Assembly (NCBI GenBank): GCA_003452935.1
Contig: DMMY01000016.1
Coordinates: forward strand, 142,009-206,008
From: Elusimicrobiota bacterium
GTDB lineage: Bacteria; Elusimicrobiota; Elusimicrobia; UBA1565; UBA9628
Reading direction: 5' to 3'
DNA: 64,000 nt
Shown here: one piece after another, positions 14,943 through 49,828 of the stretch
How the letters are laid out: every line of letters starts with the position of its first letter
Position numbering within the stretch: position 1 is the first letter of the stretch
Translations under genes and position numbers: made by a program
The notes under the pieces: generated by a model
What the model was told of the DNA's origin: nothing
The model's database searches: none
Seen by the model: the letters and a program-made list of their open reading frames with translations, nothing else

Positions 14943-15875
14943 CTAGGCGCGGGCCCGGGCCGCCATGCAGGGCAGATGCGACGCCGCGTAGGCGCGCCAA
15001 GCCGGCTCAAAGCCGCGCATATGCTCCAGGCCCTGACGCGCGCCCAGCAGCGGCACGTCCACGCAGGAGCGGACCTTATCGGTCAGCAATATCGCTTCCT
15101 TGGGCCGGCGCGCCGGGGATTTGAAATCAGAGATCGACGCGGCCCTCACCAGTGACGCGTCGAGTCCGAAACAGCCGGCCGCCATGGCCGCCAGCTCATG
15201 ACGGCTCGCCGCGTCCGGACCCACCACGTGAAAAATCCCGCCCCGGTCCTTTTCGCTCAAAGCGACGGAGACCTCGGCGAGGTTCTCGGCGTAGGTGGCG
15301 GTGACCCGCGAGTCCGAGGCCGCCCGAACCTCAGCTCCGGCCCTGAGCCGTCCCAACACCTGCAACACGAAATTCTTGGGCTCCCATTGCCAGCCGAAAG
15401 CCGCAGCCGTGCGCAACACGAAGTTCCGTGAAGACGCGGCCAGGACCAGTTCCTCGGCCTCGGCTTTCTGCCGGCCGTACTCGTTGAGGGGGCAAACCGC
15501 GTCGTTTTCCTTATAAACGCCCTTGCGGCCGTCGAAGACATAATCCGAGGAGAAGAAGATCATCCGCGCGCCGATGTCTTGGCAGGCCCGGGCCACGTTG
15601 AAAGTCCCGGCCACGTTGACGCGCCGGGTCTCATCCGGATGAAGCTCGCAATAATCCACATGGGGATTGGCCGCGGGCACGGCCACGACTTCCGGGACCA
15701 GGCTCTCCAGGACGCGGCGCACCGCGCGCTCGTCTTGCATGTCGAGCCGGCTGAAATGCGGGCACGGATGGCAGTGGAACGTCGCGCCCACGACCCGGCG
15801 GCCGCGCCTGTCCCAGGCCCGCATGAGAGCGTTGCCCACCAAGCCCGTGCCGCCGATAACGAAAATTCCCGCCAT
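14943..15875 (-). CDS. NAD(P)-dependent sugar-nucleotide reductase, RmlD (dTDP-4-dehydrorhamnose reductase)-like
   Basis: GGTGLVGNAL Rossmann motif; FFSSDYVFDG ... YGRQKAEAE (the STDYVFDG / YxxxK signature of RmlD). Confidence 0.65.
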   Translation of the reverse strand: MAGIFVIGGTGLVGNALMRAWDRRGRRVVGATFHCHPCPHFSRLDMQDERAVRRVLESLVPEVVAVPAANPHVDYCELHPDETRRVNVAGTFNVARACQDIGARMIFFSSDYVFDGRKGVYKENDAVCPLNEYGRQKAEAEELVLAASSRNFVLRTAAAFGWQWEPKNFVLQVLGRLRAGAEVRAASDSRVTATYAENLAEVSVALSEKDRGGIFHVVGPDAASRHELAAMAAGCFGLDASLVRAASISDFKSPARRPKEAILLTDKVRSCVDVPLLGARQGLEHMRGFEPAWRAYAASHLPCMAARARA

Positions 15876-15912
15876 AGGGCAGGCATTATAACATATGTGC
15901 CTAAAATCCTAT

Positions 15913-15941
15913 TGACATGAATGTCGCATAGAAGTATATTC
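15913..15941 (+). promoter_or_regulatory. Sigma70-like promoter TTGACA-17-TATATT for the OM barrel/gmd genes
   Basis: TTGACA at 15913-15918, a 17-nt spacer, TATATT at 15936-15941. AGGAGA RBS at ~15963, ATG at 15975. Confidence 0.6.
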
Positions 15942-15974
15942 TCAAGGCAAATTTACTGTTCAAGGAGAATGCGA

Positions 15975-17231
15975 ATGAAGCGTCTCGCCTGTAATGTCGC
16001 AGCACTTGTCCTGGCCTTAGCAAGCCTGCCGGCCTTTGCCGAGTCCGACAAGCCCAACATCAAGCTCGGGCAATTGGCCCTGCATCCCTTCTATGGGATC
16101 GCGGCGACCTACGACGACAACATCTACCTCGTGCCGCGCAACATCGACAACCACGCGGTGCAGGGCGGCGGCATCCGCGGTTCCTGGATCATGACCAACC
16201 GGCTCGGCTTGGGAGCGGAACTCCCCGTAGGCGAGATGAACAAGTTCAAGGCCGACTACGAGGTCCGTTCCGACGTATACAAGACCCAGCCCTCGGCCAA
16301 CAACGCCATCTCCCAGAAGGCCAACGGCTCATACGACTTCAAGGGTTCCTGGCTCAAGGCCCGTATTTTCGACAGTTACATCAACACCCAGGACCCGGCC
16401 TTCAACCCCAACAACACCGCCGTGGCGGGCGAACTCGTGGCCCGCGAGCGGCGCTGGCAGAACACGGCCGGCGCCTCGGCCGAGTACTTCCTCGGCGAGA
16501 AGTTTTTCATCGGCGCCGACGGTTCGGACACGGTGCAGAAATACCTCAGCAAGGTCCTGAGCAAGAAGCTCAACCGCTCCGAAGTCGTCTTCGGATTCAA
16601 GACCGGATACAAGCTCGCGCCCAAGACCCGCCTCTACGTCGCGGGGCACCGCTCCATGACCCATTACAACGCGGGCGTCGCCGCGGACCACGTGGCCAAC
16701 AGTCGCGCCTGGCTCGCGGACGCGGGCGTCGAGGGCGAGTTGACCCCCAAGCTCAAGGGCCAGATCCAGGGCGGTTTCGTCTACCGGCAGCACGACCACG
16801 ACAACGCCTTCGCCCTGAGAAAATCCGTGGCGCGCACCTGGACCACCATGGTCAGCCTGGATTTCAAGCCCACGCAAAGCGACACGATCAAGCTCTCGGC
16901 TAACCGCGGCTTAGTCGACGCGATCACGGGCGGCAACTACTACACCACCACCGGCGGCACCCTGGACATCGCCCACACCTTAAACAAGGTGACCTTCGGC
17001 CTCAACGGCGGCGCGCAGAACGACAAATACTCCGAGGTGATCACGGCCGGCGGCTTGACCGCGCAGCGCCGCGACAACACCTACTCGGTCGGCGCCAAGC
17101 TCGACTATAAGATCCAGGAGTGGCTCATCGCCAGCGCCAACTACAAGCGCCTGGCCCGCTACTCGAACTTCAGCCGCGAGTACAACTACAAGGACAACCG
17201 CTCAACGGTCGAGCTCAAGCTCGCCTTCTGA
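15975..17231 (+). CDS. Outer-membrane beta-barrel protein, polysaccharide-locus associated
   Basis: Signal peptide MKRLACNVAALVLALASLPAFA, alternating beta-strand pattern, C-terminal ...VELKLAF. Start trimmed to the ATG at 15975 behind the RBS. Confidence 0.55.
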   Translation: MKRLACNVAALVLALASLPAFAESDKPNIKLGQLALHPFYGIAATYDDNIYLVPRNIDNHAVQGGGIRGSWIMTNRLGLGAELPVGEMNKFKADYEVRSDVYKTQPSANNAISQKANGSYDFKGSWLKARIFDSYINTQDPAFNPNNTAVAGELVARERRWQNTAGASAEYFLGEKFFIGADGSDTVQKYLSKVLSKKLNRSEVVFGFKTGYKLAPKTRLYVAGHRSMTHYNAGVAADHVANSRAWLADAGVEGELTPKLKGQIQGGFVYRQHDHDNAFALRKSVARTWTTMVSLDFKPTQSDTIKLSANRGLVDAITGGNYYTTTGGTLDIAHTLNKVTFGLNGGAQNDKYSEVITAGGLTAQRRDNTYSVGAKLDYKIQEWLIASANYKRLARYSNFSREYNYKDNRSTVELKLAF

Positions 17232-17243
17232 GCCGATTAGCCG

Positions 17244-18329
17244 GTGAAAACAGCCCTTATCACGGGGGTAACCGGCCAGGATGGCGCATACCTGGCCGAG
17301 TTCCTCCTTAATAAAGGATACGAGGTCCACGGCATCAAGCGTCGGACCTCGCTGTTCAACACCAACCGCATAGACCACCTCTTCCAGGACCCGCACGAGA
17401 AGAAGCCGCGCTTCATCCTGCACTACGGGGACATGACGGACGCGACCAGCCTCATCCACACCGTGGGCAAGATCCGGCCCGACGAGATATACAACCTCGC
17501 GGCCCAAAGCCACGTGCAGGTGAGCTTCGAGAAGCCCGAATACACGGCCAACGCCGACGGACTGGGCACCCTGCGCATGCTGGAAGCCGTCCGCATATTG
17601 AACCTCGAAAAAAAGACCCGCCTCTACCAGGCCTCCACCTCGGAGCTCTACGGCAACGTCGGCGGCGCGTCCCAGGATGAGAACACGCTGTTCAGGCCCC
17701 GGTCCCCATACGCCGCGGCCAAGCTCTACGCCTTCTGGATCACGGTCAATTACCGCGAGGCCTACGGCCTCTACGCGTGCAACGGCATCCTCTTCAACCA
17801 CGAGTCCCCGATCCGCGGCGAGACCTTCGTCACGCGCAAGATCACCCGCGGCCTGGCCCGCATCAAGCTGGGCCTGCAGGACACGCTGTTCCTGGGCAAC
17901 CTTGACTCCCGGCGCGACTGGGGCCACGCGCGCGACTACGTGGAGATGATGTGGCTCATGCTCCAGCAGCCAGAGCCCGACGACTACGTGGTGGCGACCG
18001 GCGAGCAGCACACGGTGCGGGAATTCGTCGACGCCGCGGCCCGGGAGCTTTCCATGTCCCTGCGCTGGACGGGCAAGGGCGTGGCCGAAAAAGCGTTCTG
18101 GGGCAAGCGCGCCACGCCCGTCGTGTCCGTGGATCCGCGCTACTTCAGGCCCACGGAAGTGGAAAGCCTCTGCGGCAACGCGGCCAAGGCGCGCAAGAAG
18201 CTCGGCTGGAAGCCGCGCACCACTTTTCTCGAGCTGGTCCAAGAGATGGCCCGCGAGGACCTCCTGCGCGCCAAGAAAGAGCTGCTTTTCACCAAGCACG
18301 GCTACCCGGCCCTGCGCCGGCACGAATAG
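17244..18329 (+). CDS. gmd: GDP-mannose 4,6-dehydratase
   Basis: [43 protein letters not shown], a canonical GMD N-terminus. GTG start. Confidence 0.9.
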
Positions 18330-19365: not shown

Positions 19366-20451
19366 ATGAAGCATTCAAGAATACAAAGAACGATCCCTGT
19401 CAATAAAGGGAACTATTCAATGGAAACCCCGGAGCGGGAGGCATTATTTGACCATTTTCGCGGCGAGGGCTGGGAAAAGGAATATTGCAATTACCGCCAA
19501 AATTGGGTTAGCTACCCCTCGAAGCAATTTATTTCCGATTACCCCTTACTGGTTGACATTGAGCTCTCCACTCGCTGCAATCTGCGCTGCCCGATGTGCT
19601 ACACGATAACCAATGAATTCAAAAAAAGGGTAAAGCCCCGCTTGATGGGATTTGGCCTTTTCACCAAAATTATCGATGAAATACGAGGAAAAGTTCCAGC
19701 GATTAGACTAAGTCTACGCGGAGAGCCCACCATTCATCCCAAATTCATCGCTTGCGTCGATTATGCCAAACGAAGCGGCATTCAAGAAGTATCAACTCTG
19801 ACCAACGGCAGCACACTTTCAACAGAATTTATTTTAAAGATGATGCAGGCCGGCATTGATTGGTTAACCATATCAGTGGATGGCCTGGATGGAACGTATG
19901 AGAGCATCCGTCGGCCTCTAAAATTCAGGGCCCTTCTACAAAAACTAAAAGATATCAAGAGAATTAAGGATAAAACAGGGGCTCACAAACCCGTCGTCAA
20001 GATTCAATCCATCTGGCCGGCAATCAAGCAGAATCCCGAGAACTTCTACAACACCCTTTCTCCGTATGTTGATCTGATCGCATTTAATCCATTGATTGAC
20101 TATCTCGGCAAGGACGAGGAAATAGTCTACGAAAACAACTTCATTTGCTGCCAATTATACCAACGTCTTGTCGTGGGCGCTAACGGAGGCGCGATGATGT
20201 GCTCCAACGACGAAGACGGGACTATCATCGTCGGAGATGCGGAGAAACAAAGCATTCATAGCATCTGGCACGGATCCGCATTGAACAAACTCCGGGCCGT
20301 CCATCGGAAAAAGAATGGTTTTCTTCAGATAGCGGTATGTCGCAAATGCTATCTTCCGCGCTTGACCGAAGAAAGCGAGACCGCTCAAATCAACGGCCGC
20401 GAATTCACGATCAAGAATTACGTCAACAGAAATCAAAGAATCGGTCAATAA
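19366..20451 (+). CDS. Radical SAM / SPASM-domain protein no. 1
   Basis: CNLRCPMCY (Cx3Cx2C) near the N-terminus, plus a C-terminal Cys cluster (FICCQLY...MMCSND...AVCRKCY) of SPASM/twitch type. The start could be the ATG at 19420. Confidence 0.8.
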   Translation: MKHSRIQRTIPVNKGNYSMETPEREALFDHFRGEGWEKEYCNYRQNWVSYPSKQFISDYPLLVDIELSTRCNLRCPMCYTITNEFKKRVKPRLMGFGLFTKIIDEIRGKVPAIRLSLRGEPTIHPKFIACVDYAKRSGIQEVSTLTNGSTLSTEFILKMMQAGIDWLTISVDGLDGTYESIRRPLKFRALLQKLKDIKRIKDKTGAHKPVVKIQSIWPAIKQNPENFYNTLSPYVDLIAFNPLIDYLGKDEEIVYENNFICCQLYQRLVVGANGGAMMCSNDEDGTIIVGDAEKQSIHSIWHGSALNKLRAVHRKKNGFLQIAVCRKCYLPRLTEESETAQINGREFTIKNYVNRNQRIGQ

Positions 20452-20469
20452 TTATTTAAAGGGAATGCC

Positions 20470-21495
20470 ATGAAACCGACCTTCAACTTTCCATCCTTAG
20501 GGCCCGCCTACATCATCGCAGAGATCGGCGGGAATTTTACAAATGCCCGAGAAGCGACAGCTCTCATTGACGCGGCCGCCGATTGCAATGTCAACGCCAT
20601 AAAACTTCAGACTTACAGAGCAGAAACCATCGCGAGCCGAAAAGCCATTTTCGACATGGAGAATACCGGCGTCACGTCTCAATTCGACTTATTCAAAAAA
20701 TACGAGATCGACAAGAAGCTGCATCATGACGTTTTTAATTACGCGGCCAGACGGGGATTGGATTATTTTTCAACCCCCTCGCACGAATCCGACGCGGACA
20801 TGCTTGAAGGACTGGGCGTGGCGGTCTACAAAATCGGGTCCGACGATGCGGTTAATCTCCCATTCTTGCGCTACGTCGCGCGCAAGGGCAAGCCCATGAT
20901 TCTCGCCACAGGAATGTGTACCATGGACGAAGTGCGCGATTCCGCGCGTGTTGTTCGTGAAGCCGGATGCCCCCGGCTCATTCTGCTTCATGCCATTACG
21001 AGTTATCCGACCCACGCTGAGCATGTCAACCTGGCCGCCATGCAGGCCATGATGCGTGAATTCCCGGACTTGGAGGTCGGTTATTCAGACCACACTCTCG
21101 GCATAACGGCATGCATTTGCGCCGCGGCCATGGGGGCGCGGGTTCTGGAAAAACATTTTACCTGCGATAAGCATGCCCCAGGACCGGATCACATGCTTTC
21201 CGCCGACCCCGCCCAAATGAAAGAGCTTGTGCAAAGGGTTCGCGAATTTGAACTCATGCGGGGAAATGGCATCAAGCAACCGGCGTTATCTGAAGAAAAA
21301 ACTCGCCTCAACAATCGCAAAAGCATAGTACTCATGCACGCGATCTCCAAAGGGGAAAGGCTGACGCCCTCCCACCTCGCCGTCAAACGCCCTGGGCACG
21401 GCATCGCTCCGCGGCACCTGCCCGAACTGCCTGGCCGATCCGTCAACAAGGACATGAAGAGAGACGACATCCTTTCCTGGGAGGACTTAGACTGA
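20470..21495 (+). CDS. N-acylneuraminate/pseudaminate synthase family (NeuB/PseI-like) with a C-terminal SAF domain
   Basis: YIIAEIGGNF ... AIKLQTY ... VAVYKIGSDD ... GKPMILATGM NeuB signature blocks. Confidence 0.85.
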   Translation: MKPTFNFPSLGPAYIIAEIGGNFTNAREATALIDAAADCNVNAIKLQTYRAETIASRKAIFDMENTGVTSQFDLFKKYEIDKKLHHDVFNYAARRGLDYFSTPSHESDADMLEGLGVAVYKIGSDDAVNLPFLRYVARKGKPMILATGMCTMDEVRDSARVVREAGCPRLILLHAITSYPTHAEHVNLAAMQAMMREFPDLEVGYSDHTLGITACICAAAMGARVLEKHFTCDKHAPGPDHMLSADPAQMKELVQRVREFELMRGNGIKQPALSEEKTRLNNRKSIVLMHAISKGERLTPSHLAVKRPGHGIAPRHLPELPGRSVNKDMKRDDILSWEDLD

Positions 21496-21521
21496 AAGTC
21501 GGGATCATCCTGCAGGCGCGC

Positions 21522-22202
21522 ATGGGGTCATCGCGTTTTCCCGGTAAAGTCCTGCGCTTAATCGGGAAGCGCAAGCTGCTGGAGCATGTTTTTTTTCGAT
21601 TGAGACATTCAAAAGTCGAAACAACCTTGATCGTCGCAACCCCAGACATTACGGCTGATGACCCCATTTCCGAGCTCTGTCGCCAACACGAAGTGGCATG
21701 CTTCCGCGGCAGCGAGCTCAATGTCCTCGACCGATATTATCGCTGCGCCTTACGGCACGCTTTTGACCACATAGTCCGCTTGACAGGAGACAATCCGTTC
21801 GTCGATATTGAAGAAATGGACCGTCTAATTAGGCTTCATTTGGAGACCGAGGCCGATTTCTCCTATTCCTTTCAGGTTTTGCCAATCGGCTGCGGAGCCG
21901 AGATATTTTCCTTCCCAGCCCTGGCAACAAGTTTCCAGGAGGGACACGCATCGCATCATTTGGAGCACGTAGACGAATACATATTCGACCATCTCGATCG
22001 CTTTCGCACCAGTGCGTTGATAGTTCCGGGGGACAAGCAGAAGCCAAAAGTGCGCCTGACCGTTGACACGCCGGAAGACTATGCCCGAGCATGTTTCATC
22101 GTCAAACACTCATCAAGCGAATATGTATCGACAGAGGAAGCGATAGCCCTGGCGGCGGATTTTGACCATATTACAAGGAAACCGTCAGGCGGGATCCTAT
22201 GA
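21522..22202 (+). CDS. Nonulosonic-acid cytidylyltransferase (PseF/NeuA/SpsF family). The N-terminus probably starts upstream at a non-ATG codon.
   Basis: MGSSRFPGKVL matches the GSSRLPGK motif. The in-frame upstream reading LKVGIILQARM supplies the conserved AIIQAR block, with CTG 21492 overlapping the neuB-like stop. Confidence 0.7.
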   Translation: MGSSRFPGKVLRLIGKRKLLEHVFFRLRHSKVETTLIVATPDITADDPISELCRQHEVACFRGSELNVLDRYYRCALRHAFDHIVRLTGDNPFVDIEEMDRLIRLHLETEADFSYSFQVLPIGCGAEIFSFPALATSFQEGHASHHLEHVDEYIFDHLDRFRTSALIVPGDKQKPKVRLTVDTPEDYARACFIVKHSSSEYVSTEEAIALAADFDHITRKPSGGIL

Positions 22203-23167
22203 CTTTCGCTATTTGCGCGGAATCTTCGCATCAACGAGGCATGGGGCATATTTTCCGCGCGATAAACTTTCACTCATATCTGAAGGCGAAAGGGGAAGCC
22301 TGCGTTATCTTAACCAACCCCCATGCGCCGGCTGAAGACGCGCTGCGCAAGAACAGCGTTCAATTCGACTTGATAGACCTTAACAACGAGCAAAGCCAAT
22401 GGGAACGCATCCTCATCTCCCGTCACAGAATCGATGTTTGGATTAACGACCGCCTAACTACCGGGAAAGCTCACGCCTTAAGGGTCAAAAACGCAGGCGC
22501 CAAACTAATCACGATGGATGATCACGGTCCCGGAGCAGATTTGAGCGATCTTCATGTGGCCAGCCTATCTTTCTCAGAATCAGAGCCACCACGAGGCCGC
22601 AGGGTGCTGCAAGGCATTGATTACCTGATCTTAAGTCCGCACATTATCGCGCGGCGCCGCCTCCGAAGGACTCTGGAACGGATCGTTATTTCCTTGGGAG
22701 GCAGCGATACATACGGCGTCACGGTCAAAGTCGCCATTCTCCTAAGAGAGCTGAACTATTCGGCCGTCATTCATCTCGGCCCCGCATTCGCCCACCACGA
22801 TGCGCTCGCGGCATTGCTCGGAGACAATCTCTCGGTAACGGAAAACATCCCATCGTTGGTTGATTTGTTTTCAGATTTCGATCTAGCCATCACAGGTGCC
22901 GGCGTGACCCCTTTCGAAGCCAACGCGGCGGGCTTGCCGGCACTAGTCATAGCCAACGAGCTCTTTGAAATACCCAACGGCAAGCTGCTGCATGCCGCAG
23001 GATCCGCTTTTTTTATGGGCCATCACAAAAACCTTTGCCGTCATCAAATGCAGGCAGGACTTTCCTACGCCGCCGCCCACCTCGAAGAAATGAGCCGACG
23101 AGGCATGGAACGATTTTCTCCTCAAACAGCTTTCGAGAGAATATTTAAAGAAATTAAGAATATATAA
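22199..23167 (+). CDS. PseG-like UDP-sugar hydrolase (GT28 C-terminal-like)
   Basis: N-terminal AICAESSHQRGMGHIFRAINF resembles PseG (R.DSSSQIG.GH). C-terminal ISLGGSD...ITGAGVTPFEANAAGLPALVI block. Confidence 0.55.
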   Translation: MTFAICAESSHQRGMGHIFRAINFHSYLKAKGEACVILTNPHAPAEDALRKNSVQFDLIDLNNEQSQWERILISRHRIDVWINDRLTTGKAHALRVKNAGAKLITMDDHGPGADLSDLHVASLSFSESEPPRGRRVLQGIDYLILSPHIIARRRLRRTLERIVISLGGSDTYGVTVKVAILLRELNYSAVIHLGPAFAHHDALAALLGDNLSVTENIPSLVDLFSDFDLAITGAGVTPFEANAAGLPALVIANELFEIPNGKLLHAAGSAFFMGHHKNLCRHQMQAGLSYAAAHLEEMSRRGMERFSPQTAFERIFKEIKNI

Positions 23168-23168
23168 T

Positions 23169-23855
23169 ATGACTGCCGTCATCCACCAACCAGATTTCTT
23201 GCCCTATCTCGGATTTTTCCATAGATTACTTCAGGCACATTTGTACGTAATCCTGGACCACGTTCAATTCGTATACGGCAGCAGAAGTTGGACCAGCAGG
23301 GATAAGATAAAGACTTCCCAAGGAGCAAAATGGCTGACCGTACCGATAAAAAAATGCGCGCAGGCGACGCCGATCGATCAAGTAATGCTTTCCAACACGG
23401 ACTGGCGCCAAACCCATCTTAACTTATTGTTCGAAAACTACCGCTCCACCCCATTCTTTGAGGAAATATTGCCCCATATAGAGGCTCTCTATCAGTTTCA
23501 GTGCGAACGCCTGGTAGATTTCAACCTTGCCTCAATCAATATGCTGAATCATCTTTTTGGCATCTCCATTCCATCCGCCCTCTCCAGCAGCCTGAAACCT
23601 GCGGGAAAAAGCAACGAGTTGCTCGTTGACATTCTTAAAAAAGTCAATGCGACCACATATCTTTCAGGAATCGGGGCGAAAGCTTACTTCGATCCCAAGC
23701 CGTTCGAAACCGCAGGCATACGCGTTATTTGGCAGAATTTCTCTCATCCAGTTTATCTACAATGCCACGGCCCCTTCATTGCGTCTCTGAGCAGTATCGA
23801 CCTGCTTTTTAATTGCGGCATAGCGAAATCACGCGAAATACTAAGGAGCTGCTAA
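23169..23855 (+). CDS. WbqC-like family protein (O-antigen-cluster associated, function unknown)
   Basis: MTAVIHQPDFLPYLGFF start typical of WbqC-family proteins. Confidence 0.55.
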   Translation: MTAVIHQPDFLPYLGFFHRLLQAHLYVILDHVQFVYGSRSWTSRDKIKTSQGAKWLTVPIKKCAQATPIDQVMLSNTDWRQTHLNLLFENYRSTPFFEEILPHIEALYQFQCERLVDFNLASINMLNHLFGISIPSALSSSLKPAGKSNELLVDILKKVNATTYLSGIGAKAYFDPKPFETAGIRVIWQNFSHPVYLQCHGPFIASLSSIDLLFNCGIAKSREILRSC

Positions 23856-24481
23856 TGAATATTCTCGCGATCGGCGCGCATTTTGACGATATAGAACTCG
23901 GATGCGGAGGAGCACTAGCAAAGCATGTTGCCCATGGCGATAACGTATACGCCTATGTCGCGACCCTTTCCGGTTTTGCCAACCAAAAAAATCAGGTTGT
24001 TCGAACCAACAAGATCGCGAAAGAGGAAGGAAAAAAGGCAATGGCTATTTTGGGGGCAACCCTGATTTGCGGAGACCACAAGACCTTAGCTGTCGAATTC
24101 AATGAGCGATTAAATACGCAAATCTTGAGCATCACCGAGGATCAAGCTATAGGTTTGGTCTACACACATTGGATCGGCGACATTCATCATGACCACCAAG
24201 CCGTGGCGCGGGCGTCGCTACACTCCTGCCGCCACGTTCCACGCATGCTGATGTATCGCAGTAATTGGTACCACTCCACCATGGAATTTCAAGGAAATTT
24301 TTACGTTGACATAACCGATCATATCGACACAAAATTTAATGCCGTCCGGGCGCACTCTTCCGAACTAAAACGAATCGGAAACAGATGGATCACTTTTTTT
24401 CAAAATGAGGCGGAAAACGCCGGGCAACGCATTTCGGTCAAGCACGCGGAGGTCTTCGAGCTTGTGAAATGGCTTGAATAA
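23855..24481 (+). CDS. PIG-L/LmbE family N-acetyl-sugar deacetylase
   Basis: ILAIGAHFDDIELGCGG (AHPDD-type motif) and HxDH segment. AGGAG RBS before the ATG at 23855. Confidence 0.75.
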   Translation: MNILAIGAHFDDIELGCGGALAKHVAHGDNVYAYVATLSGFANQKNQVVRTNKIAKEEGKKAMAILGATLICGDHKTLAVEFNERLNTQILSITEDQAIGLVYTHWIGDIHHDHQAVARASLHSCRHVPRMLMYRSNWYHSTMEFQGNFYVDITDHIDTKFNAVRAHSSELKRIGNRWITFFQNEAENAGQRISVKHAEVFELVKWLE

Positions 24482-24711: not shown

Positions 24712-26454
24712 ATGAACCCCACGCCCGATTCCGAAACCGAACTTGATTTGACTCATTACATGGATATCATCCTGCGCCGCCGATGGATCGTCCTCTCGGC
24801 GCTCTCCATCGTTTTTATCTCAACGATGCTCGTGACTTTCACCACCAAACCAATCTACCAGGCCAGTTCCTTGCTTGTCATCGAAAAGGAACGCAGTTCC
24901 AGCAATGCGGTCTACACCAACGGCGCCCTCATTGAAAGCAGCAATGACGACTATTACCAAACCCAATACAAACTGCTCCAAAGCAAATCCTTAACGCAAA
25001 AGGTTTTTGACGATCTGCACTTATCCAATGCCGCCGATTTCGCGGACCCTCGCGGCATAGAGAAGTTCCGCAACGCCCTGACCATTTCCCCGGTCCTGCG
25101 CAGCCGTTTGGTCTATGTCCGGGTGCAGTCCCACAATCCACATCTCGCCGCCAAAGCCGCCAATGCCCTCAGTGAAACCTTCGTCGATCAAAATCTCTCC
25201 AATCAACTTTTCATCTCCAAGGAAGTCTTGCAGGCCCTACAAGTCAATGAAGACTCCCCAAAAGCCCGGCAGATGTACGAAGCCCTGCCCGCCGTCGTCA
25301 GCAACCCGCTCATCCAAACCCTTAAAGGCGAACACGCCAAGCTCGAGGCGCAATGCGCGGAAATGTCACAAAAATTCACGGCCAAATACCCAGCCATGAT
25401 CGCTTTGCGATCCAACCTGAACGCGCTCAAGGGGCAAATTCAAGCTGAAACAGACAAAGTCGTGCAGAGCCTGAAGACCGAACTGTCCGGCCAGTTGCGC
25501 GGGAATAATGTTCGCATCGTTGATTCTGCCACTGTTCCGGAGTCTCCGATCAAGCCAACAAAACGGACGAACGCTTTGCTCGGGCTTATCGGCGGCCTAG
25601 GCCTGGGCTTGGCCCTGGCATTCCTGGTGGAAATGATCGATCAAAGCGTTCGAACCCAGGAAGATATAGAGGAAAAGCTCGGCCAGCCCTTCCTTGGCAT
25701 AATTCCTCAATCCATTATCCGGAACAACACAATCATTGAGGCGATGCTGGCCAAAGAACTTTCTCTTACCAGCGAGGCCTTCCGCAACATGCGAACCATG
25801 GTGGATTTCGCCGGCATTGGCGGAAAAGCAAAGACCGTCCTGCTGACATCGACGGTCCAGGGAGAGGGAAAGACTTATATAGCTTCCAACTTAGCCGTGG
25901 CCTGGGCCCAGATAGGAGAAAGCGTTTTGCTCATTGACGGAGACCTTCGCCGCCCAAAAATCCACAAAGCCTTCCATCTCTCGGCCGAAAAAGGTCTCAG
26001 CGATTTCTTGGTCTCAGGCCGCCACACCGAAGACGTGGCAAACCTAGTCCAACAATGCGTGGTTCCCGGCTTATCTCTCCTGCCCTGCGGCCAACGCCCC
26101 CCCAATCCATCAGAACTGCTCAACACTCCCCGCTTGGGCGCGATGATCGCCTGGGCGCAGGAACATTACGACAGAGTCGTCGTCGACAGCACACCCATGT
26201 TTCCCATCAACGACACATTGCTTTGGGGCCGCCATATCCCCTCCAGCATCTTCGTCGTTCGCTACGGCGAGACCCGCACCCCGCTTATTCGCAGCGCCTG
26301 TCAAAAACTCATCACCAGCAGCATCAAGCCACTCGGCGTCGCTATCAACGCGGCAAAAGCCGGCGGGCTATCCTACGCATCCTACGGCTACTACTATCAA
26401 CAATACTATCAGCAATACCACCAGGAATCGGAGCTCAGCAAAAAGTCCACATGA
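24712..26454 (+). CDS. wzc: Polysaccharide co-polymerase / tyrosine autokinase (Wzc/BY-kinase family)
   Basis: N-terminal Wzz region with TM; Walker A QGEGKTYIASNLA; DGDLRRP; C-terminal Tyr cluster YASYGYYYQQYYQQY. Confidence 0.85.
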   Translation: MNPTPDSETELDLTHYMDIILRRRWIVLSALSIVFISTMLVTFTTKPIYQASSLLVIEKERSSSNAVYTNGALIESSNDDYYQTQYKLLQSKSLTQKVFDDLHLSNAADFADPRGIEKFRNALTISPVLRSRLVYVRVQSHNPHLAAKAANALSETFVDQNLSNQLFISKEVLQALQVNEDSPKARQMYEALPAVVSNPLIQTLKGEHAKLEAQCAEMSQKFTAKYPAMIALRSNLNALKGQIQAETDKVVQSLKTELSGQLRGNNVRIVDSATVPESPIKPTKRTNALLGLIGGLGLGLALAFLVEMIDQSVRTQEDIEEKLGQPFLGIIPQSIIRNNTIIEAMLAKELSLTSEAFRNMRTMVDFAGIGGKAKTVLLTSTVQGEGKTYIASNLAVAWAQIGESVLLIDGDLRRPKIHKAFHLSAEKGLSDFLVSGRHTEDVANLVQQCVVPGLSLLPCGQRPPNPSELLNTPRLGAMIAWAQEHYDRVVVDSTPMFPINDTLLWGRHIPSSIFVVRYGETRTPLIRSACQKLITSSIKPLGVAINAAKAGGLSYASYGYYYQQYYQQYHQESELSKKST

Positions 26455-28181
26455 CGTTTCGCCTTCCGGCGCCAATCCTCGAAAGCCTCTTCCTTTTTGC
26501 CGTAATTGTCGGGCCATTATTCTTCGGCGCCGTTGAACCGTGGTCATTTGCCGTTCTATGCCTCGCGATTAACACAACGGTATTTTTTTGCGCATTACGC
26601 GGCCTGCCGAATCTTGAGCAGCCTATCTACCGGACGTTGCTCCCTGGCATCGCGGCCTTACTTTTCATAGGCGTGATTCAACGCTTCAATCCCCGCTCGA
26701 TCCTCGAGCCTGCCTCTTGGCTGCCCGCAAGCACAAGTCCTAATGCCACCGGTCGCGCTTTATGGCTATGGTCGACCTACGCAGCCGCTCTCTGGTGCGC
26801 GCCCCAGGTTTTCAATGGGCTGGCCGCCGTGAAACGACTCCTGGCTACGATATTCGCCCTAGGCTGCACGCTCGCTGTCGTCGGAATCATTCAAAAGGCC
26901 CAATATCCAGAAATGTATGATAACTTAATCTACGGATTACGCCGAGCCCCATTTCCTCTCCAACCCTTCGGACCTTATTACAATAAGGATCACGCTGCTT
27001 CCCTGCTGATCATGACCATATTCTGCGGGGTCGGCTTGCTGTGGAACCAAGCCAGCGTTATGCAAGAACGCCCCAAGCAACACGATTTATTCAGCATCGC
27101 AGCCATCCAAACCATGATCATTTTTGGCATTGGGATCAGCCTTCTCGGCCTCCTCCATACCCGTTCAAGAGGCGCACTGGCCGCCCTTTTAATAACAGGG
27201 CTCGCTCTTGGCATACACTCCTTTTGGGGGAGAATTTATCGAACCTTTTTATTCATTCCAGCCTTGGCCCTTGTTCTATTCGCTATAACGACAAGCCCCA
27301 TCGCCGACAAATTCTCAGGTTCGCTGATCAAGACAGCAATTGCCGAACGAACCATGTTCTATCGCTCAGGAATGCTCATCGTCAGCGATTTCCCATTAAT
27401 GGGCACAGGCCTAGGCACTCTCCAACAGGCCTACTATCCATATCAGCCGAGAGAAGTACGGGGAATAATGGAGCACATCCACTGCGACTGGCTGGAGCTC
27501 TTAATCCAGGCTGGACTTGCAGGTTTTACTGCATACATATTGGGCTTTGCACTCTTCTTGCGCTCCTGCATAAAATCTCCGCCTCATATCGCTAAGCGAG
27601 AAAACCCGGGGCTTGCCCAAGGAGTTGGCGGCGGCGCCATTGCCTTCGCAATTCACGGATGCATTGATTTCGGGTTCCAGACTCCGGCCAATGCATTGAT
27701 CTTTTTCCTTCTTCTCGCGGCATTAGGCATCTTGTCTAGCCGCAACGAGGACTCCCAGAAGCCTCGCCTGCCCCTTTTCTCGAGAATTCCACAAATCGCC
27801 ATCGCCGCCGCGGCCCTCACCCTAGTCCTTTTCTCCGTTCCGCCGGCCGTTGCATCCTGGCACTACTTAAACCGAAAAGCGGATTCTCCGGAATCCTGCG
27901 CAAAACGTCTCTCCCTAGCTATTGAGCTGGACGCCCAGCCAAAATATCATTATGAACTTGCGCGACACCTCGCATCTTCGATGCCTCAACAAATAGACGG
28001 GCGCATCCAAATACTCCGTCAAGCCCTTGCGCATGCCAATTCGGCCTTACTGCTCGATCCCGCAAGCCCGAACCTCCGCAGGCTTCAAGATGACATCCTT
28101 TGGCGCTTAGGCCGCTTGGCGGACGGGAAAGACCTCCGCAATCAAGACGATCGTTTAGAGGGCGGCAATGGCGAATACTAG
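26450..28181 (+). CDS. O-antigen ligase/polymerase-family membrane protein (Wzy_C domain) with a C-terminal TPR-like tail
   Basis: Many TM helices. LLHTRSRGALAAL loop typical of the Wzy_C/WaaL family. ATG at 26450 overlaps the wzc stop (ATGA). Confidence 0.6.
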
Positions 28182-29175: not shown

Positions 29176-30978
29176 TTGGAAAGAAAACAATTGGGTCGGT
29201 TCCTAATTACCACAGCCCTGGAAGAAGCCTGGCGCGATGATGTGCCGGTTTTATTCCTCGGGGAGTGGTGTCTATCCTACTCCCGCAAGGATCGATGGTC
29301 AAAAATCGATGCGGAAATATTGCCTTATCACTGGGATGACCGGGCCAAGTTATATGCCGATTATAAAAACCTCCTGGCTTTCCATGAGCGCTTATTGGCC
29401 AATTTGGCCGGACAGCTCAACGAGATTCACGGCGTCGACCACAGTCTTCGCTACTGGCGCATATTGATCGGCCCGTGGTTGGGGGATTTCATCCACATAC
29501 TATTTGATCGCTGGACATCCATTCACCAAGCCATTGCTCAGCATGTGCTGTCCGGAACTCTTATTCTAACCGGCAAAGAAGAAACCTTGATTCCCAATGA
29601 CATGGCCGACTTCAGCCGCCTCTTGATCCGAGATGAATGGAATCATCACCTCTACGCCGCCATTCTACAGCGCTTTACGACGGTTCCCTGCAGCAAAAGG
29701 GCACGGCAAGACATTGCAAGTTGGACTCCACATGCCGTTCCAAACACATCCTGGAAACAACTTGTCAAGCGCACAATGGCCGACTGGTATGTCCGAGGAG
29801 CACGGTTGCTGGCTAGTGACCAAGACGCATTCCTTCTAGCCACCTACTTGCCCTTTCGCGACGAGATGAGAATGCATCGACGTTTGGGGCAATTGCCGCA
29901 ACCCTGGCGTTCGACATCTCCGGCAAAAGCCTCCGTTGACGAACACCGACGGCAATGGGTTGTCGCAGGAAACAGTCTCTCGCCATTCGAGACATGCGCG
30001 CGCGCCCTAATCCCATCTCAAATACCGGCGATATATCTAGAAGGCTACAGCCAACTGGTTATGCAGACGACTGTTTTACCTTGGCCTAAAAAACCCAAGC
30101 TAATCTGGACCAGCAATGCCTTGACTTCCGACGATGTTTTTAAAGCCTGGGCAGCGGACAAAATTGAAAAAGGGTCCCCGTTGGTGGTCGGGCAGCATGG
30201 CGGTCATTACGGCATAGGCCGTTGGTCGTTCCTTGAAGATCATGAAATAGCCATCAGCGACCGCTACCTCAGCTGGGGCTGGGCAGAGCCGGGCCATCCC
30301 AAAATAAAACCAGTCGGACAATTGAAGGCAAAACGGCCATTAGGCATTCGACATGCGGAAAAACCGGTCGCATTGCTGGTCACGTCCAACCACCCACGAC
30401 AAAGCTATCGGAATCACAGTTCAATGATCTCGCGCCAGTGGAGCGATTATTTTAAGGATCAGAGAATATTCGTCGCGCAATTACCCGCGGAGATTAAAGA
30501 GGCGTTGATTGTGCGCCTATATTGCCATGATTACGGCCGCGACCAAGCGGCGCAATGGCATGATCACTTCCCGGCCCTGCGCCTTGACGCCGGCCATTCC
30601 AACATCATTAGGTTGATTGCCCAATGCCGCCTTTATATCTCCACATATAATTCCACGACTTTCCTGGAATCGTTCACCATGAATATACCTACGATCATTT
30701 TTTGGAACCCAAATCATTGGGAACTGCGCGATTCCGCCATCCCTTATTTCGAAGAGCTCAAGCGCGTCGGCATCTTTCACGAAAGCCCGGCATCCGCCGC
30801 ACGTCACGTGACCGACATATGGGATCATGTCGATGAGTGGTGGTCCTCCGCATCCGTCCAGCGGACTCTCAAGCAATTCAAGGCGCGTTACTGCGATCTG
30901 CCCAATAATCTATTGGAACGAATTGAGCACGCATTGCGGGAAGTCATGCCCATTTCAGAAAAAACCGACTCATGTTAA
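29176..30978 (+). CDS. Large uncharacterised protein, probable GT-B-fold transferase of unassigned family (hyp-A)
   Basis: No recognised family. The C-terminal region (IIRLIAQCRLYISTYNSTTFLESFTMNIPTIIFW) resembles the donor-binding tail of GT-B enzymes. Shows weak similarity to the 33777 ORF. Confidence 0.3.
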   Translation: MERKQLGRFLITTALEEAWRDDVPVLFLGEWCLSYSRKDRWSKIDAEILPYHWDDRAKLYADYKNLLAFHERLLANLAGQLNEIHGVDHSLRYWRILIGPWLGDFIHILFDRWTSIHQAIAQHVLSGTLILTGKEETLIPNDMADFSRLLIRDEWNHHLYAAILQRFTTVPCSKRARQDIASWTPHAVPNTSWKQLVKRTMADWYVRGARLLASDQDAFLLATYLPFRDEMRMHRRLGQLPQPWRSTSPAKASVDEHRRQWVVAGNSLSPFETCARALIPSQIPAIYLEGYSQLVMQTTVLPWPKKPKLIWTSNALTSDDVFKAWAADKIEKGSPLVVGQHGGHYGIGRWSFLEDHEIAISDRYLSWGWAEPGHPKIKPVGQLKAKRPLGIRHAEKPVALLVTSNHPRQSYRNHSSMISRQWSDYFKDQRIFVAQLPAEIKEALIVRLYCHDYGRDQAAQWHDHFPALRLDAGHSNIIRLIAQCRLYISTYNSTTFLESFTMNIPTIIFWNPNHWELRDSAIPYFEELKRVGIFHESPASAARHVTDIWDHVDEWWSSASVQRTLKQFKARYCDLPNNLLERIEHALREVMPISEKTDSC

Positions 30979-32587: not shown

Positions 32588-33748
32588 TTGCAGCAATTAC
32601 CCCGCAATATTGTCCGATTCAAAAATTATGGCCACGCGCAGATGGGAAATATAACAACCTTTCTTCCGGATCATTTCAAGAACCTCATAAGACCTTATTA
32701 TTATTGGCTGAAGCGGCATGTGCGCAAATCTTTTAAATCCAGCATAGTCGCCCTGCCGTCTCACCTGAACATGGCATTTACGATGAAATGCCAAGCTGCC
32801 TGCCCGCACTGCTACTTCTTACAGGAAAACACAGCTACCTTCAAACGCCCTGAATTATTAACTCAAAAATTCCTGACCAACATGCTGGGGTCGCCGTTTT
32901 GCAAAAATATAAGGACCATGACGTGCGGCGGGGGAGAAGCCCTTCTGCATCCAGACATTCTCTCACTGGTTAAAATTCCCTACCAATTCGGCATCACGCA
33001 AATTCAGATCGTCTCCAATGGCATCACCCTGCAGGACAAGGATATCGTACAGAGGATAATTGCCAATAAAAGTTTCAACACTTTGCAGGTTTCCCTCGAC
33101 GCCGCGAATGCCGATGATTTCATGCTTAAGAAAGGCATCACGAAATGCGATTTCAATAGCATATTGAAGAATATAGCCGCGATCACGGCCTCATATGAAA
33201 AAGGGGGACATTTTTCCACAGGGCTGAGCTTCGTGATCAACGCGCGCAATATCAGGGACCTGTCCCAAATGATAAAATTGGCGGAGGAGCTAAATGTCGA
33301 TTATTGTCATTTCGCCACTCAACAAGTTACCAGGGACGACAACTCCTCAACCATCGGACAAACGGTCGAAAAGGAACAACCAGAATACGATAATGTTCTT
33401 CGACAAACCAGCTACCAAGTAGACATCAACATCCAACCGCCACTTCAGTCCAATTTCCTTCACTACTTCTGCGCATCCCTGGCACATCATCTATCATTAA
33501 GCCCTGAAGGACGGCTTGCTCCGTGCTGCCACATCCCTTGGGACAAGAAATACGGGATGTTCGATTCATGCCGCGAAAACCCGATAAACAATCCGGCAGC
33601 GGTCAATTTACGAGACATGTTCATCGCCGCCAAAAAAGAGGGCAACCCCGTGCTGCTGCCCCAAGAATGCAAAAAATGCCCGCGCCGGCTCAAGGGATAT
33701 TTCCATTTTTCACGACATCGCCGGAAATGGCAATTTATCCCATATTAG
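32588..33748 (+). CDS. Radical SAM / SPASM-domain protein no. 2
   Basis: CQAACPHCY (Cx3Cx2C) plus a C-terminal Cys-rich region (CCHIPWD...DSCREN...ECKKCPRR). Confidence 0.75.
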   Translation: MQQLPRNIVRFKNYGHAQMGNITTFLPDHFKNLIRPYYYWLKRHVRKSFKSSIVALPSHLNMAFTMKCQAACPHCYFLQENTATFKRPELLTQKFLTNMLGSPFCKNIRTMTCGGGEALLHPDILSLVKIPYQFGITQIQIVSNGITLQDKDIVQRIIANKSFNTLQVSLDAANADDFMLKKGITKCDFNSILKNIAAITASYEKGGHFSTGLSFVINARNIRDLSQMIKLAEELNVDYCHFATQQVTRDDNSSTIGQTVEKEQPEYDNVLRQTSYQVDINIQPPLQSNFLHYFCASLAHHLSLSPEGRLAPCCHIPWDKKYGMFDSCRENPINNPAAVNLRDMFIAAKKEGNPVLLPQECKKCPRRLKGYFHFSRHRRKWQFIPY

Positions 33749-33776
33749 CGCCAACTATATTTATATTGTTTGAGGA

Positions 33777-35768: not shown

Positions 35769-35877
35769 GCTGCCCTTAAAACCAATCCAGGTAATTTGAC
35801 AGGATGGAACATCGTCAGACGGACAATATGTTTCGCAAAACAAGTTATTTGAGGATTAAAAAAGACATCTAGCCGCC

Positions 35878-49221: not shown

Positions 49222-49828
49222 AATGAAAAGAGCTTTAGACTTGGCCTTAGCCTGTTCCGGCCTCCTGTTCTGCGCACCTATCATGCTCGCCATCACGCTA
49301 GTCCAAAAACTAAGCTCCCCAGGCCCTTTGCTCTATCGCGGGAGCCGGGTGGGAAAAAATGGCCGCAGATTCAGCATCCTCAAGTTCCGAACCATGGTCG
49401 TCAACGCTGAAAAAATTGGCGGGTCCTCAACCTCCGATAGCGATCCCCGGATCACCTCAATGGGCAGGTTTCTGCGGCGATGGAAGCTGGATGAATTGCC
49501 CCAACTTTGGAACGTGATCACCGGGGACATGAGCCTTGTCGGCCCCCGCCCGCAGGTCGAACACGATGTTGCCCAGTACTCGGAGGATGAGAAAAAAATT
49601 CTTACGGTTCGCCCGGGAATCACAGACTGGTCTTCGATCAAGTTCCGCAATGAAGGAGCAATTTTGGCGAAATATCCGGATCCGGATCAAGCCTACATCG
49701 AGCAAATTCGTCCGGAGAAAATTCGTCTGCAGATGCTCTATATCCGCGAGATGTCCTTTTTGGGCGATTTAGAAATACTCTGGGCGACCATCGTCGCATT
49801 ATTCGGAGCAGAGGTCAAACTGCCATGA
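49222..49828 (+). CDS. Initiating sugar-phosphate transferase (PglC/WbaP C-terminal-domain type, 'bacterial sugar transferase')
   Basis: MKRALDLALACSGLLFCAPIMLAI TM helix, then LYRGSRVGKNGRRFSILKFRTM ... GDMSLVGPRP. Start trimmed to the ATG at 49222. Confidence 0.8.

Follow-up and report, generated by a model that had tools for sequence, protein, structure and literature searches.

A widespread gene cassette for a putative sialic-acid-like sugar with a remodelled N-acyl group, present in short form in an Elusimicrobiota polysaccharide locus

The stretch of DNA considered here (the window) comprises 64,000 nucleotides of contig DMMY01000016.1 (assembly GCA_003452935.1, positions 142,009 to 206,008, forward strand) from an Elusimicrobiota bacterium. 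It contains a low-GC island of 40 kb (~18.4-58.4 kb), in which the GC content is 50-55% compared to 63-66% in the flanks and all plausible genes are on the + strand. The open reading frames (ORFs) of the island and the window were scanned with Pfam and NCBIfam. Close to the upstream end of the island, six genes at 19366-24481 look, from their sequence and spacing, like a single operon of translationally coupled genes. They form the downstream part of a widespread, hitherto unstudied cassette that presumably serves to make a nine-carbon sugar resembling sialic acid, or nonulosonic acid (NulO):

19366-20451, + strand: radical S-adenosylmethionine (SAM)/SPASM protein (PF04055, PF13186), the first gene of the conserved block
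20470-21495, + strand: NeuB-family synthase (PF03102 plus SAF)
21492-22202, + strand (ATG at 21522 in the ORF list): cytidylyltransferase, CTP_transf_3 (PF02348)
22199-23167, + strand: PseG/SpsG-like GT-B protein (TIGR03590, below cut-off)
23169-23855, + strand: WbqC (PF08889)
23855-24481, + strand (TTG start at 23813 in the ORF list): PIG-L/LmbE deacetylase (PF02585)

An earlier note on this DNA had described a contiguous synthase, cytidylyltransferase and PseG-like protein accompanied by WbqC and an LmbE deacetylase, and all five were found where it had placed them. It overlooked the radical SAM gene, which belongs to the same conserved unit and stops 18 bp before the synthase gene. The gaps and overlaps across the six genes are 18, -4, -4, 1 and -1 nt, and the flanking gaps are 215 and 231 bp. 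The true start of the cytidylyltransferase is probably at 21492, restoring the N-terminal 'IILQARMGSSRFPGK' (the NCBI version has 236 residues). The ATG of the PIG-L gene at 23855 overlaps the WbqC stop codon by 1 nt, and an alternative start at 19420 would give a radical SAM protein of 343 residues. All six ORFs are full length, and the catalytic motifs - CX3CX2C, the NeuB metal ligands, GMGH and AHFDD/HHDH - are intact.

The conservation of the operon was assessed in 37 species-level loci with a NeuB homologue at least 53% identical to the window synthase, each partner being counted where the contig permits the test. The cytidylyltransferase gene stands beside the synthase homologue, on the same strand, in 36/36 loci, the PseG-like gene in 34/35, and WbqC and PIG-L in 33/34 each. 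A radical SAM gene immediately precedes that of the synthase in 28/34 loci, and these orthologues are 54-67% identical. Three neighbourhood look-ups and the 37 loci agree that the order radical SAM, synthase, cytidylyltransferase, PseG-like, WbqC, PIG-L is kept almost always. Among 43 loci with more distant NeuB homologues, none has a cytidylyltransferase, PseG-like, PIG-L or radical SAM partner, and a weak WbqC match was found in 1/43. The grouping of these genes is far above chance. The carriers are found in Beta-, Alpha- and Gammaproteobacteria, Bradyrhizobium, Rhizobium, Brocadiaceae, Chlorobiaceae, Leptospiraceae, Nitrospira, Geobacter, Acidobacteria and Lachnospiraceae, and the cassette as a whole amounts to hundreds of 90%-identity clusters in more than 10 phyla. 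Rhizobium sp. WYJ-E13 is a cultured carrier of a full, nine-gene form (NZ_CP076854.1, ~1.662-1.678 Mb); further cultured carriers, going by their names, are Neorhizobium galegae (HAMBI 1141), Aliarcobacter butzleri, Aliarcobacter cryaerophilus and Geothermobacter. In the literature library that was searched, no paper connects the parts of the cassette, and WbqC is mentioned only in passing.

In most loci, three genes precede the six-gene block and complete the nine-gene cassette: a LegB-type short-chain dehydrogenase/reductase (SDR), a 239-residue guanylyltransferase-like NTP_transferase and a 287-residue SDR. The LegB-type gene is present in 28/31 loci, and the protein of one of them (SDR330 of locus L007) passes the curated LegB model with 511.8 bits (cut-off 475). 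No aminotransferase is syntenic with the cassette; in 13 of ~38 loci there is a DegT gene within 10 kb, but its position differs between them. The accessory genes vary as well, among them those for methyltransferases, an LbH acyltransferase, a 292-residue orphan and Wzm/Wzt or PglK-like exporters; some loci also have a second complete NeuB and cytidylyltransferase set. In a Methylobacter and a Ferrovum metagenome-assembled genome (L020 and L047, respectively) the second set, consisting of SDR, DegT, an ORF, NeuB and cytidylyltransferase, directly adjoins the downstream end of the cassette, so that some genomes hold two nonulosonate pathways side by side. Five loci (L009, L025, L029, L036 and L046) have a CTP_transf_3, Gfo/Idh/MocA and DegT trio downstream of the cassette.

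The LegB-type dehydratase, the nucleotidyltransferase and the 287-residue SDR are missing from the 64 kb of the window, and they are also missing from its closest relative and from a Bradyrhizobium locus (L022). The closest relative (L099; 74% identity), on a separate groundwater contig, has the same six-gene short form with 61-75% protein identity over all six genes. Its gene order - Wzz, Wzy, orphan, DegT, family 2 glycosyltransferase (GT2), cassette, LIC12162, flippase - is shuffled relative to the window. Because the window, the closest relative and one Bradyrhizobium locus share it, the short form is a maintained six-gene unit, and its preservation at such identity in a separate groundwater lineage argues for selection on that unit.

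The synthase matches PF03102 with 272.8 bits over profile positions 1-241 of 241 and SAF with 37.5 bits, which places it in the NeuB superfamily. It falls below both equivalog cut-offs, scoring 336.7 against 399.65 with the NeuB/LegI model (NeuB_NnaB, TIGR03569) and 270.5 against 340.25 with the PseI model (TIGR03586), the latter being the lower score. Its distances to proteins in the PDB are about equal: 172 bits for NmNeuB, 166 for BsSpsE (1vli) and 156 for PseI. Homologues at 61-74% identity form a tight group, and all other NeuB-family proteins are at most 44% identical, with one intermediate at 53%. The residues that bind phosphoenolpyruvate (PEP) and the metal in 1xuu are kept (E25, K53, Q55, T110, K129, S132, S213, H215, H236, D247 and R314). 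G133-E134 of 1xuu is replaced by D125-D126, and N184 by T177. The resulting motif, K(I/V)GSDD, is invariant in the clade (119/120 homologues, 47/49 loci), and other NeuB homologues have K-x-(P/G)-S-G-E or other motifs in its place. The active site is not of the pseudaminic acid (Pse) type: the Phe before the catalytic acid is absent, as is a Ser at NmNeuB position 184 (T177). At the motif position, which adjoins the C2 N-acyl group of the hexose, Gly is found in the enzymes for neuraminic and legionaminic acid (Neu and Leg) and Phe in those for Pse (PMC7371886). An acidic residue there would be compatible with a free or otherwise modified amine. None of the conserved motifs of the window synthase departs from the clade consensus, the FDMENTGV-SQ loop of the C4-C6 specificity region being no exception, and the enzyme is therefore expected to use the same type of substrate as the full cassettes. 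By its sequence it is an ulosonic acid synthase of a distinct KIGSDD clade, which would condense PEP with an aldose.

The PseG-like protein has no Pfam match. Its sole NCBIfam match is PseG (TIGR03590), with 70.8 bits and E 1.4e-19 over residues 1-252, and no MurG/GT28 or GT4 model matches it at E <= 0.01. In the family alignment S10, H11, G14, G16, H17 and R20 near the N terminus are invariant (E/D...GxGH-x-x-R), and the GxGH presumably occupies the same sequence position as GFGH17 of Campylobacter jejuni PseG. The family profile matches PseG in its N-terminal half and MurG/UgtP in its C-terminal half. A hydrolase is favoured because the gene is strictly linked to those for the synthase and the cytidylyltransferase, as in Pse pathways and in SpsG/E/F of Bacillus subtilis. 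Judged in this way, the protein is most likely an NDP-sugar hydrolase, with a transferase role possible.

The cytidylyltransferase matches PF02348 with 90.4 bits and the PDB entry 6oew ('cytidylyltransferase') with 88.9 bits. NCBIfam gives no PseF or NeuA match at E <= 0.01, just weak KdsB matches and a match to part of TIGR04321 (see below). The protein is presumed to be a CMP-sugar synthetase of the SpsF type. A triad of NeuB, SpsF-type CTP_transf_3 and SpsG/PseG-like proteins constitutes a genetically validated NulO (legionaminic acid) route in B. subtilis (PMC7439481).

The radical SAM protein matches PF04055 with 54.2 bits and PF13186 with 40.5 bits, as expected of the radical SAM/SPASM group. 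The cluster motif CX3CX2C is formed by C71/C75/C78. There are just five C-terminal Cys residues, so that the protein is twitch-like and not a full seven-Cys SPASM protein. TIGR04321 'spiro-SPASM', a spirochaete family in which a cytidylyltransferase-like domain is fused to a radical SAM/SPASM domain, is matched in its N-terminal half by the cytidylyltransferase (model positions 76-211) and in its other half by the radical SAM protein (222-377). Unlike in the fusion, the window genes are separate, with the synthase between them, and their scores are 28 and 39 bits against a family cut-off of 250. The match is a Rosetta-stone link that suggests one common substrate, and it gives a hint that the radical SAM enzyme may work on a nucleotide-activated sugar.

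WbqC matches PF08889 with 224.9 bits, far above the gathering threshold of 21.3. Neither a sequence search nor a family-profile search found a relative in the PDB. The predicted model (pLDDT 94) has the HUP / class I aminoacyl-tRNA-synthetase nucleotide-binding fold, and its nearest structures are BshC and class I LysRS. From this model WbqC is proposed to be an ATP-dependent ligase that would acylate a sugar amine. The PIG-L protein belongs to a deacetylase family (PF02585; 56.9 bits, gathering threshold 28.2), contains the AHFDD and HHDH motifs and matches diacetylchitobiose deacetylase and BshB in the PDB. Its best NCBIfam matches, BshB1 (61.3; cut-off 182.5) and BshB2 (44.4), are both below cut-off, and it is not a BshB equivalog. 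In bacillithiol biosynthesis, BshB deacetylates GlcNAc-malate and BshC puts cysteine on the free amine (PMC5790435). The position of a BshC-like WbqC beside a BshB-like deacetylase suggests N-deacetylation followed by ATP-dependent re-acylation. By this analogy, PIG-L and WbqC probably swap the N-acetyl group for a ligase-installed acyl, probably aminoacyl, group. NulOs that are N-aminoacylated, e.g. Leg5Ac7AcAla, exist (PMC7371886).

The WbqC-PIG-L pair recurs, at just 33% identity, on the B. thuringiensis plasmid pKBT365 (L093; NZ_CP072692.1 213531-228202). The genes there are sugar dehydrogenase, DegT, SDR, class V aminotransferase, GNAT, WbqC, PIG-L, sugar isomerase and MFS transporter, apparently a small-molecule amino-sugar cluster, which is present on many plasmids of the B. 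cereus group. In all of the distant WbqC loci inspected (6/6) a DegT/RffA aminotransferase adjoins WbqC or lies within ~5 kb of it; 2/6 also have radical SAM genes, and 1/6 an NTP_transferase and a 'MurG' gene. Plasmid pSVL1 of Streptomyces vietnamensis (L096; NZ_CP010408.1 42210-54872) has, in a row, radical SAM, a SPASM protein, UDP-galactopyranose mutase, WbqC, DegT, NTP_transferase and 'MurG', without NeuB.

Several genes further downstream in the island bear on the supply of the precursor and on the acyl substituent (HexNAc, N-acetylhexosamine):

42311-44242, + strand: AsnB-type protein
46032-47954, + strand: AsnB-type protein
49091, + strand: small phosphoglycosyl transferase
52310-53449, + strand: DegT aminotransferase
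56515-58431, + strand: WbpM/PglF-type HexNAc 4,6-dehydratase, Polysacc_synt_2 (PF02719, 360.9 bits)

The earlier note had pointed to the distal DegT and WbpM-type genes and to two AsnB-like amidotransferases, all of which are present. DegT scores 187 with the PseC model (cut-off 423.5) and 152 with LegC (cut-off 420), and the WbpM-type protein scores 158 with PseB (cut-off 407.75). Both genes adjoin the small phosphoglycosyl transferase gene, whose expected partner is the WbpM-type dehydratase. A role in making the initiating amino sugar accounts for the two genes at least as well. In locus L036 a Polysacc_synt_2-type (FnlA/PseB-like HexNAc) dehydratase stands in place of LegB directly upstream of the cassette, and the window WbpM-type enzyme could therefore feed the pathway. 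It is a possible, though uncertain, supplier in trans of the 4-keto-6-deoxy-HexNAc precursor. In B. subtilis, the UDP-GlcNAc-utilising dehydratase SpsM, together with an aminotransferase, feeds SpsG/E/F (PMC7439481). No reductase candidate was found in the island. The note's statement that the island has no GNAT or LbH N-acetyltransferase is borne out, as no GNAT or LbH/hexapeptide Pfam match was obtained in any + strand ORF of the island at E <= 0.01, or in the orphan ORFs at E <= 5.

Both AsnB proteins pass the asparagine synthase model TIGR01536 (432 and 447 bits, cut-off 267) and resemble the XrtA/exopolysaccharide (EPS) amidotransferases of TIGR03108. PseA belongs to a separate PP-loop family, and EPS-type AsnB amidotransferases typically amidate uronic acids. 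A PseA role, which the earlier note had assigned to them, was ruled out for both proteins, which are of the glutamine-hydrolysing asparagine-synthase/EPS amidotransferase type. GMD, encoded upstream of the cassette in the window, L016 and L036, all of which lack LegB, was considered as a substitute for LegB and rejected; in L016 and L036 it is part of an ordinary ManC-GMD-Fcl GDP-fucose trio. The 389-residue orphan at 55336-56505 was considered as a missing acyltransferase and rejected, as it looks more like a secreted, hydrolase-like protein. It has no Pfam match, but it has a paralogue further downstream. The two paralogues, at 55336-56505 and ~58449-59486, flank the WbpM-like gene and are 39-40% identical to the orphan beside DegT in L099. 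The downstream one, which has the lipoprotein-type signal (LLAACLLGLSAC) and the TIM-barrel match, is hidden within a spurious 858-residue ORF at 56910-59486. From these features the downstream copy may be a secreted glycoside-hydrolase-like protein.

With a probability of roughly 0.55, the operon at 19366-24481 represents the short version of a cassette whose product would be a CMP-activated NulO, similar to sialic acid but remodelled at its N-acyl group. In the full cassettes, the sugar-1-phosphate nucleotidyltransferase would produce NDP-HexNAc, the LegB-type enzyme would perform 4,6-dehydration, and the short SDR would reduce or epimerise C4 to give NDP-6-deoxy-HexNAc. The PseG/SpsG-like GT-B enzyme would hydrolyse this nucleotide sugar to the free sugar. 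PIG-L would take off the 2-N-acetyl group, and WbqC would re-acylate the free amine, probably in an ATP-dependent manner, with an amino acid or another carboxylate, following the logic of BshB-BshC and MshB-MshC. The KIGSDD synthase would then condense the sugar with PEP, the SpsF-type cytidylyltransferase would convert the product to a CMP-sugar, and the radical SAM/twitch enzyme would tailor the (CMP-)sugar, e.g. by oxidation, epimerisation or C-modification. The predicted generic product is a 5-N-acyl-3,5,9-trideoxy-nonulosonate with a 7-hydroxy group and a fusaminic-acid-like backbone. A backbone with one nitrogen, and not the 5,7-diamino backbone of Pse and Leg, is expected because the cassette has a reductase-type SDR and no aminotransferase. 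A PseH/LegH acetyltransferase would not be needed, since the only nitrogen would come from GlcNAc. As the three precursor genes are absent from the window, its precursor would have to be supplied by genes in other parts of the genome or by the WbpM-type enzyme encoded at 56515.

A more specific form of this proposal is tentative, and we consider it rather doubtful in its entirety. According to it, WbqC would be a minimal BshC/class I aminoacyl-tRNA-synthetase-like ligase that, with the LmbE deacetylase, swaps N-acetyl for an aminoacyl or other carboxyl-derived group, the nine-gene cassette would be the first genetic route to one-nitrogen 3,5,9-trideoxy NulOs of the fusaminic type, and the radical SAM enzyme would act on the CMP-sugar.

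The cassette shares features with several known systems. It has in common with the Pse pathway of Campylobacter and Helicobacter (PseB, PseC, PseH, PseG, PseI and PseF) the triad of a GT-B hydrolase-like protein, a NeuB-family/SAF synthase and a cytidylyltransferase, and the only family that the window GT-B protein matches, with its GxGH at residue 17, is PseG. However, the PseI, PseG, PseB and PseC scores in the window are all under the curated cut-offs, there is no PseF match and no PseH, and the synthase has Asp-Asp where Pse enzymes have Phe-Glu. Furthermore, the full cassettes have a LegB-type dehydratase instead of the inverting PseB, and the cassette adds radical SAM, WbqC and PIG-L, which are absent from Pse clusters. 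The earlier note's description of the module as pseudaminic-acid-like is at odds with the synthase, whose PseI score is lower than its NeuB/LegI score and which lacks the Pse-type Phe, as well as with the LegB-type dehydratase of the full cassettes. Its more general description, a non-standard nonulosonate module lacking a PseH/LegH-type acetyltransferase, is supported. The note had further suggested a product that is 'amidino- or otherwise acylated'. The second part agrees with the deacetylase and ligase-like pair, whereas the first, which depended on PseA-like AsnB proteins, does not agree with proteins of the EPS type.

The pathways for Leg (LegB/C/H/G/I/F with PtmE in C. jejuni; SpsM/C/D/G/E/F in B. 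subtilis, PMC7439481) resemble the full cassettes, which begin with a nucleotidyltransferase and a LegB-passing protein and contain an SpsE/SpsF/SpsG-type trio; JGI labels the GT-B homologues SpsG. Unlike these pathways, the cassette lacks a LegC/SpsC aminotransferase, a LegH/SpsD acetyltransferase and a NeuC-type LegG, and a short SDR takes the place of the aminotransferase. There is no Epimerase_2 match in any ORF of the island. The synthase is under the NeuB/LegI cut-off and has Asp-Asp for Gly-Glu, and the product is predicted to contain a single nitrogen instead of two.

Bacillithiol and mycothiol biosynthesis (BshA/B/C and MshA/B/C) likewise involves an adjacent GT-B protein and the deacetylation of a GlcNAc-type amide, followed by ligation of an amino acid to the amine. 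WbqC, however, has just 228 residues, corresponding to a catalytic core without the coiled-coil or anticodon-binding domain of BshC, and no similarity to BshC can be detected in its sequence. The PIG-L protein is under the BshB cut-offs, and the genes accompany a NeuB synthase in a setting of polysaccharide or O-antigen synthesis instead of thiol metabolism. The pair is thus likened to the Bsh pair in its putative working logic and not in family membership, WbqC having fallen outside the BshC family.

According to PMC7371886, which cites Vinogradov 2017, the sugar of Fusobacterium nucleatum ATCC 25586 is 5-acetimidoylamino-3,5,9-trideoxy-non-2-ulosonic acid, of the fusaminic type, and occurs together with 6-deoxy-L-AltNAc, its presumed precursor. 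It contains one nitrogen and a 7-OH, and no other 3,5,9-trideoxy NulO has been reported. Going by that description, it has the backbone expected of a dehydratase, reductase, hydrolase and synthase route without an aminotransferase; here a structure is likened to a prediction made from genes only. The N-substituent appears to differ, being acetamidino in that sugar as against the ligase-installed acyl group predicted for the cassette. Taken by analogy, the cassette would work like the last part of a Pse/Sps-type NulO pathway to which a deacetylase-ligase pair of the Bsh/Msh type and a radical SAM enzyme have been added. The genes should not be annotated as N-acetylneuraminic acid (Neu5Ac), Pse or Leg genes.

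The earlier note favoured a 5,7-diamino sugar, and in such a scheme WbpM (56515) and DegT (52310) would supply UDP-4-amino-4,6-dideoxy-HexNAc for a Pse/Leg-type 5,7-diamino-3,5,7,9-tetradeoxy-nonulosonate with non-acetyl substituents, including an AsnB-made amidino group. The window, which has no LegB or SDR, does have a HexNAc 4,6-dehydratase and DegT, the short form in the closest relative has DegT two genes upstream, and LegB is replaced by a Polysacc_synt_2-type dehydratase in L036. B. subtilis feeds SpsG/E/F from SpsM and an aminotransferase (PMC7439481), and WbqC could acylate the 4-amino group without PseH. Nevertheless, the 5,7-diamino scheme appears unlikely. The DegT and WbpM-like scores are under the PseC, LegC and PseB cut-offs; the two genes are 28-32 kb away, in the standard initiating-sugar arrangement beside the phosphoglycosyl transferase; and the DegT proteins of the window and the relative are just 32% identical. 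The specificity loops of the synthase are the consensus of a clade that normally works without an aminotransferase, with no DegT syntenic with the cassette, and the synthase lacks the Pse-type Phe. The AsnB proteins are not of the PseA type. Quite improbable, in our estimate, is an arrangement resembling thiol biosynthesis, in which the GT-B protein would be a true glycosyltransferase, an analogue of BshA/MshA, that puts HexNAc on an acceptor; PIG-L would deacetylate it, WbqC would ligate an amino acid, and NeuB and the cytidylyltransferase would make a separate CMP-ulosonate or the acceptor. The contiguous GT-B, BshC-like and BshB-like genes do mirror BshA/BshC/BshB (PMC5790435), and the S. 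vietnamensis plasmid has radical SAM, SPASM, WbqC, DegT, NTP_transferase and 'MurG' genes with no NeuB. However, the GT-B protein matches PseG (E 1.4e-19) and no MurG/GT28 or GT4 model, carries the PseG-like N-terminal motif and is strictly linked to NeuB and the cytidylyltransferase, like its counterparts in the Pse and Sps pathways. If there were no hydrolase, the synthase would be left without a free 6-deoxy sugar, and the cassette is found in O-antigen/EPS loci, not among genes of thiol metabolism. The six genes might also be what is left of a nine-gene cassette after truncation, no longer productive and carried along in an EPS island gained by horizontal transfer, given the GC content of 50-55% against 63-66% and the absence of three precursor genes. 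There is very little chance of this, since no ORF is shortened, every catalytic motif is intact and the genes show translational coupling. A separate groundwater lineage retains the same short form with 61-75% protein identity, and the Bradyrhizobium locus is without the three genes as well.

A number of points weigh against the reading of the operon as a cassette for an N-acyl-remodelled NulO. The PseG-like protein scores below the PseG cut-off of 153.55, and its predicted fold fits PseG and a MurG-type transferase alike. The likeness of WbqC to BshC is at the level of the fold only, with 11% identity and no NCBIfam BshC match, and even for BshC itself the reaction has never been reproduced in vitro (PMC5790435). 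The Lachnospiraceae versions and one planctomycete version do without the radical SAM gene, so that it would be an optional tailoring step, and the chemistry assigned to it is conjecture. The window lacks all three upstream genes (nucleotidyltransferase, LegB-type dehydratase and SDR), and a DegT-fed 7-amino variant is conceivable in view of the DegT gene near the cassette in the nearest relative. The pathway chemistry is deduced from domain identities and synteny, and the data leave the order of hydrolysis, deacetylation, re-acylation and condensation unconstrained.

The gene content of the island, judged by the Pfam and NCBIfam matches of all ORFs, is that of a Wzx/Wzy-type polysaccharide locus, probably acquired horizontally. 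The exact window protein is found on 16 metagenome contigs, mostly from groundwater, and is assigned by NCBI to an Elusimicrobiota metagenome-assembled genome. The remaining assigned genes are:

18483, + strand: Wza (Pfam/NCBIfam scan)
24712, + strand: Wzc (Pfam/NCBIfam scan)
~26451-28181, + strand: Wzy_C (Pfam/NCBIfam scan)
28168, + strand: GT2 glycosyltransferase
30972, + strand: flippase (Pfam/NCBIfam scan)
41076 and 47929, + strand: two GT4 glycosyltransferases
Flanks outside the island: rpsB-tsf, an RmlD-like gene, a porin gene and gmd

The listed 708-residue ORF at 26055-28181 runs 400 nt into the Wzc gene; metagenome calls give a 576-residue Wzy_C protein from ~26451. At 29176-30978 there is a protein of the LIC12162 family (PF27859 by precomputed annotation; without a match in the Pfam copy used here). 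In the closest relative its gene is the first after the cassette; in the window it is situated three genes further downstream. The protein is possibly a partner, perhaps a transferase, of the cassette product in the window lineage only. The genes at 32588-39425 are unusual for an EPS locus. A second radical SAM gene (32588-33748) is followed by a 663-residue ORF without a family match, an 875-residue BNR_2 (sialidase-like repeat) protein and a PorV/UPF0164-like outer-membrane protein. The region between the phosphoglycosyl transferase and the WbpM-type dehydratase (49825-56505) encodes, besides DegT, a TylF-like methyltransferase, a split transketolase (50543-51388 and 51385-52317), a class I/II aminotransferase (~53458-54591), another methyltransferase and the 389-residue orphan, a gene set that suggests an unusual branched or N-acylated initiating amino sugar. 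Just beyond the island, the 63% GC region at 14943-18329 encodes an RmlD-like reductase on the - strand (rmlD 189.5, cut-off 224), a BBP2_2 porin and a bona fide GMD (566 bits). These genes probably constitute a GDP-6-deoxyhexose pathway of the host backbone that is separate from the cassette.

Nonulosonic acids shape host recognition, phage and Siglec binding and the properties of biofilms. The cassette gives a testable function for the orphan family WbqC, which is potentially a small and tractable relative of BshC. It also offers a new candidate carbohydrate-modifying radical SAM enzyme and, by analogy with the F. nucleatum sugar, a candidate gene set for the only known 3,5,9-trideoxy nonulosonate. 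If the proposed function is true, rhizobia, Aliarcobacter, anammox bacteria, Nitrospira, gut Lachnospiraceae and others would share an overlooked class of surface sugars.

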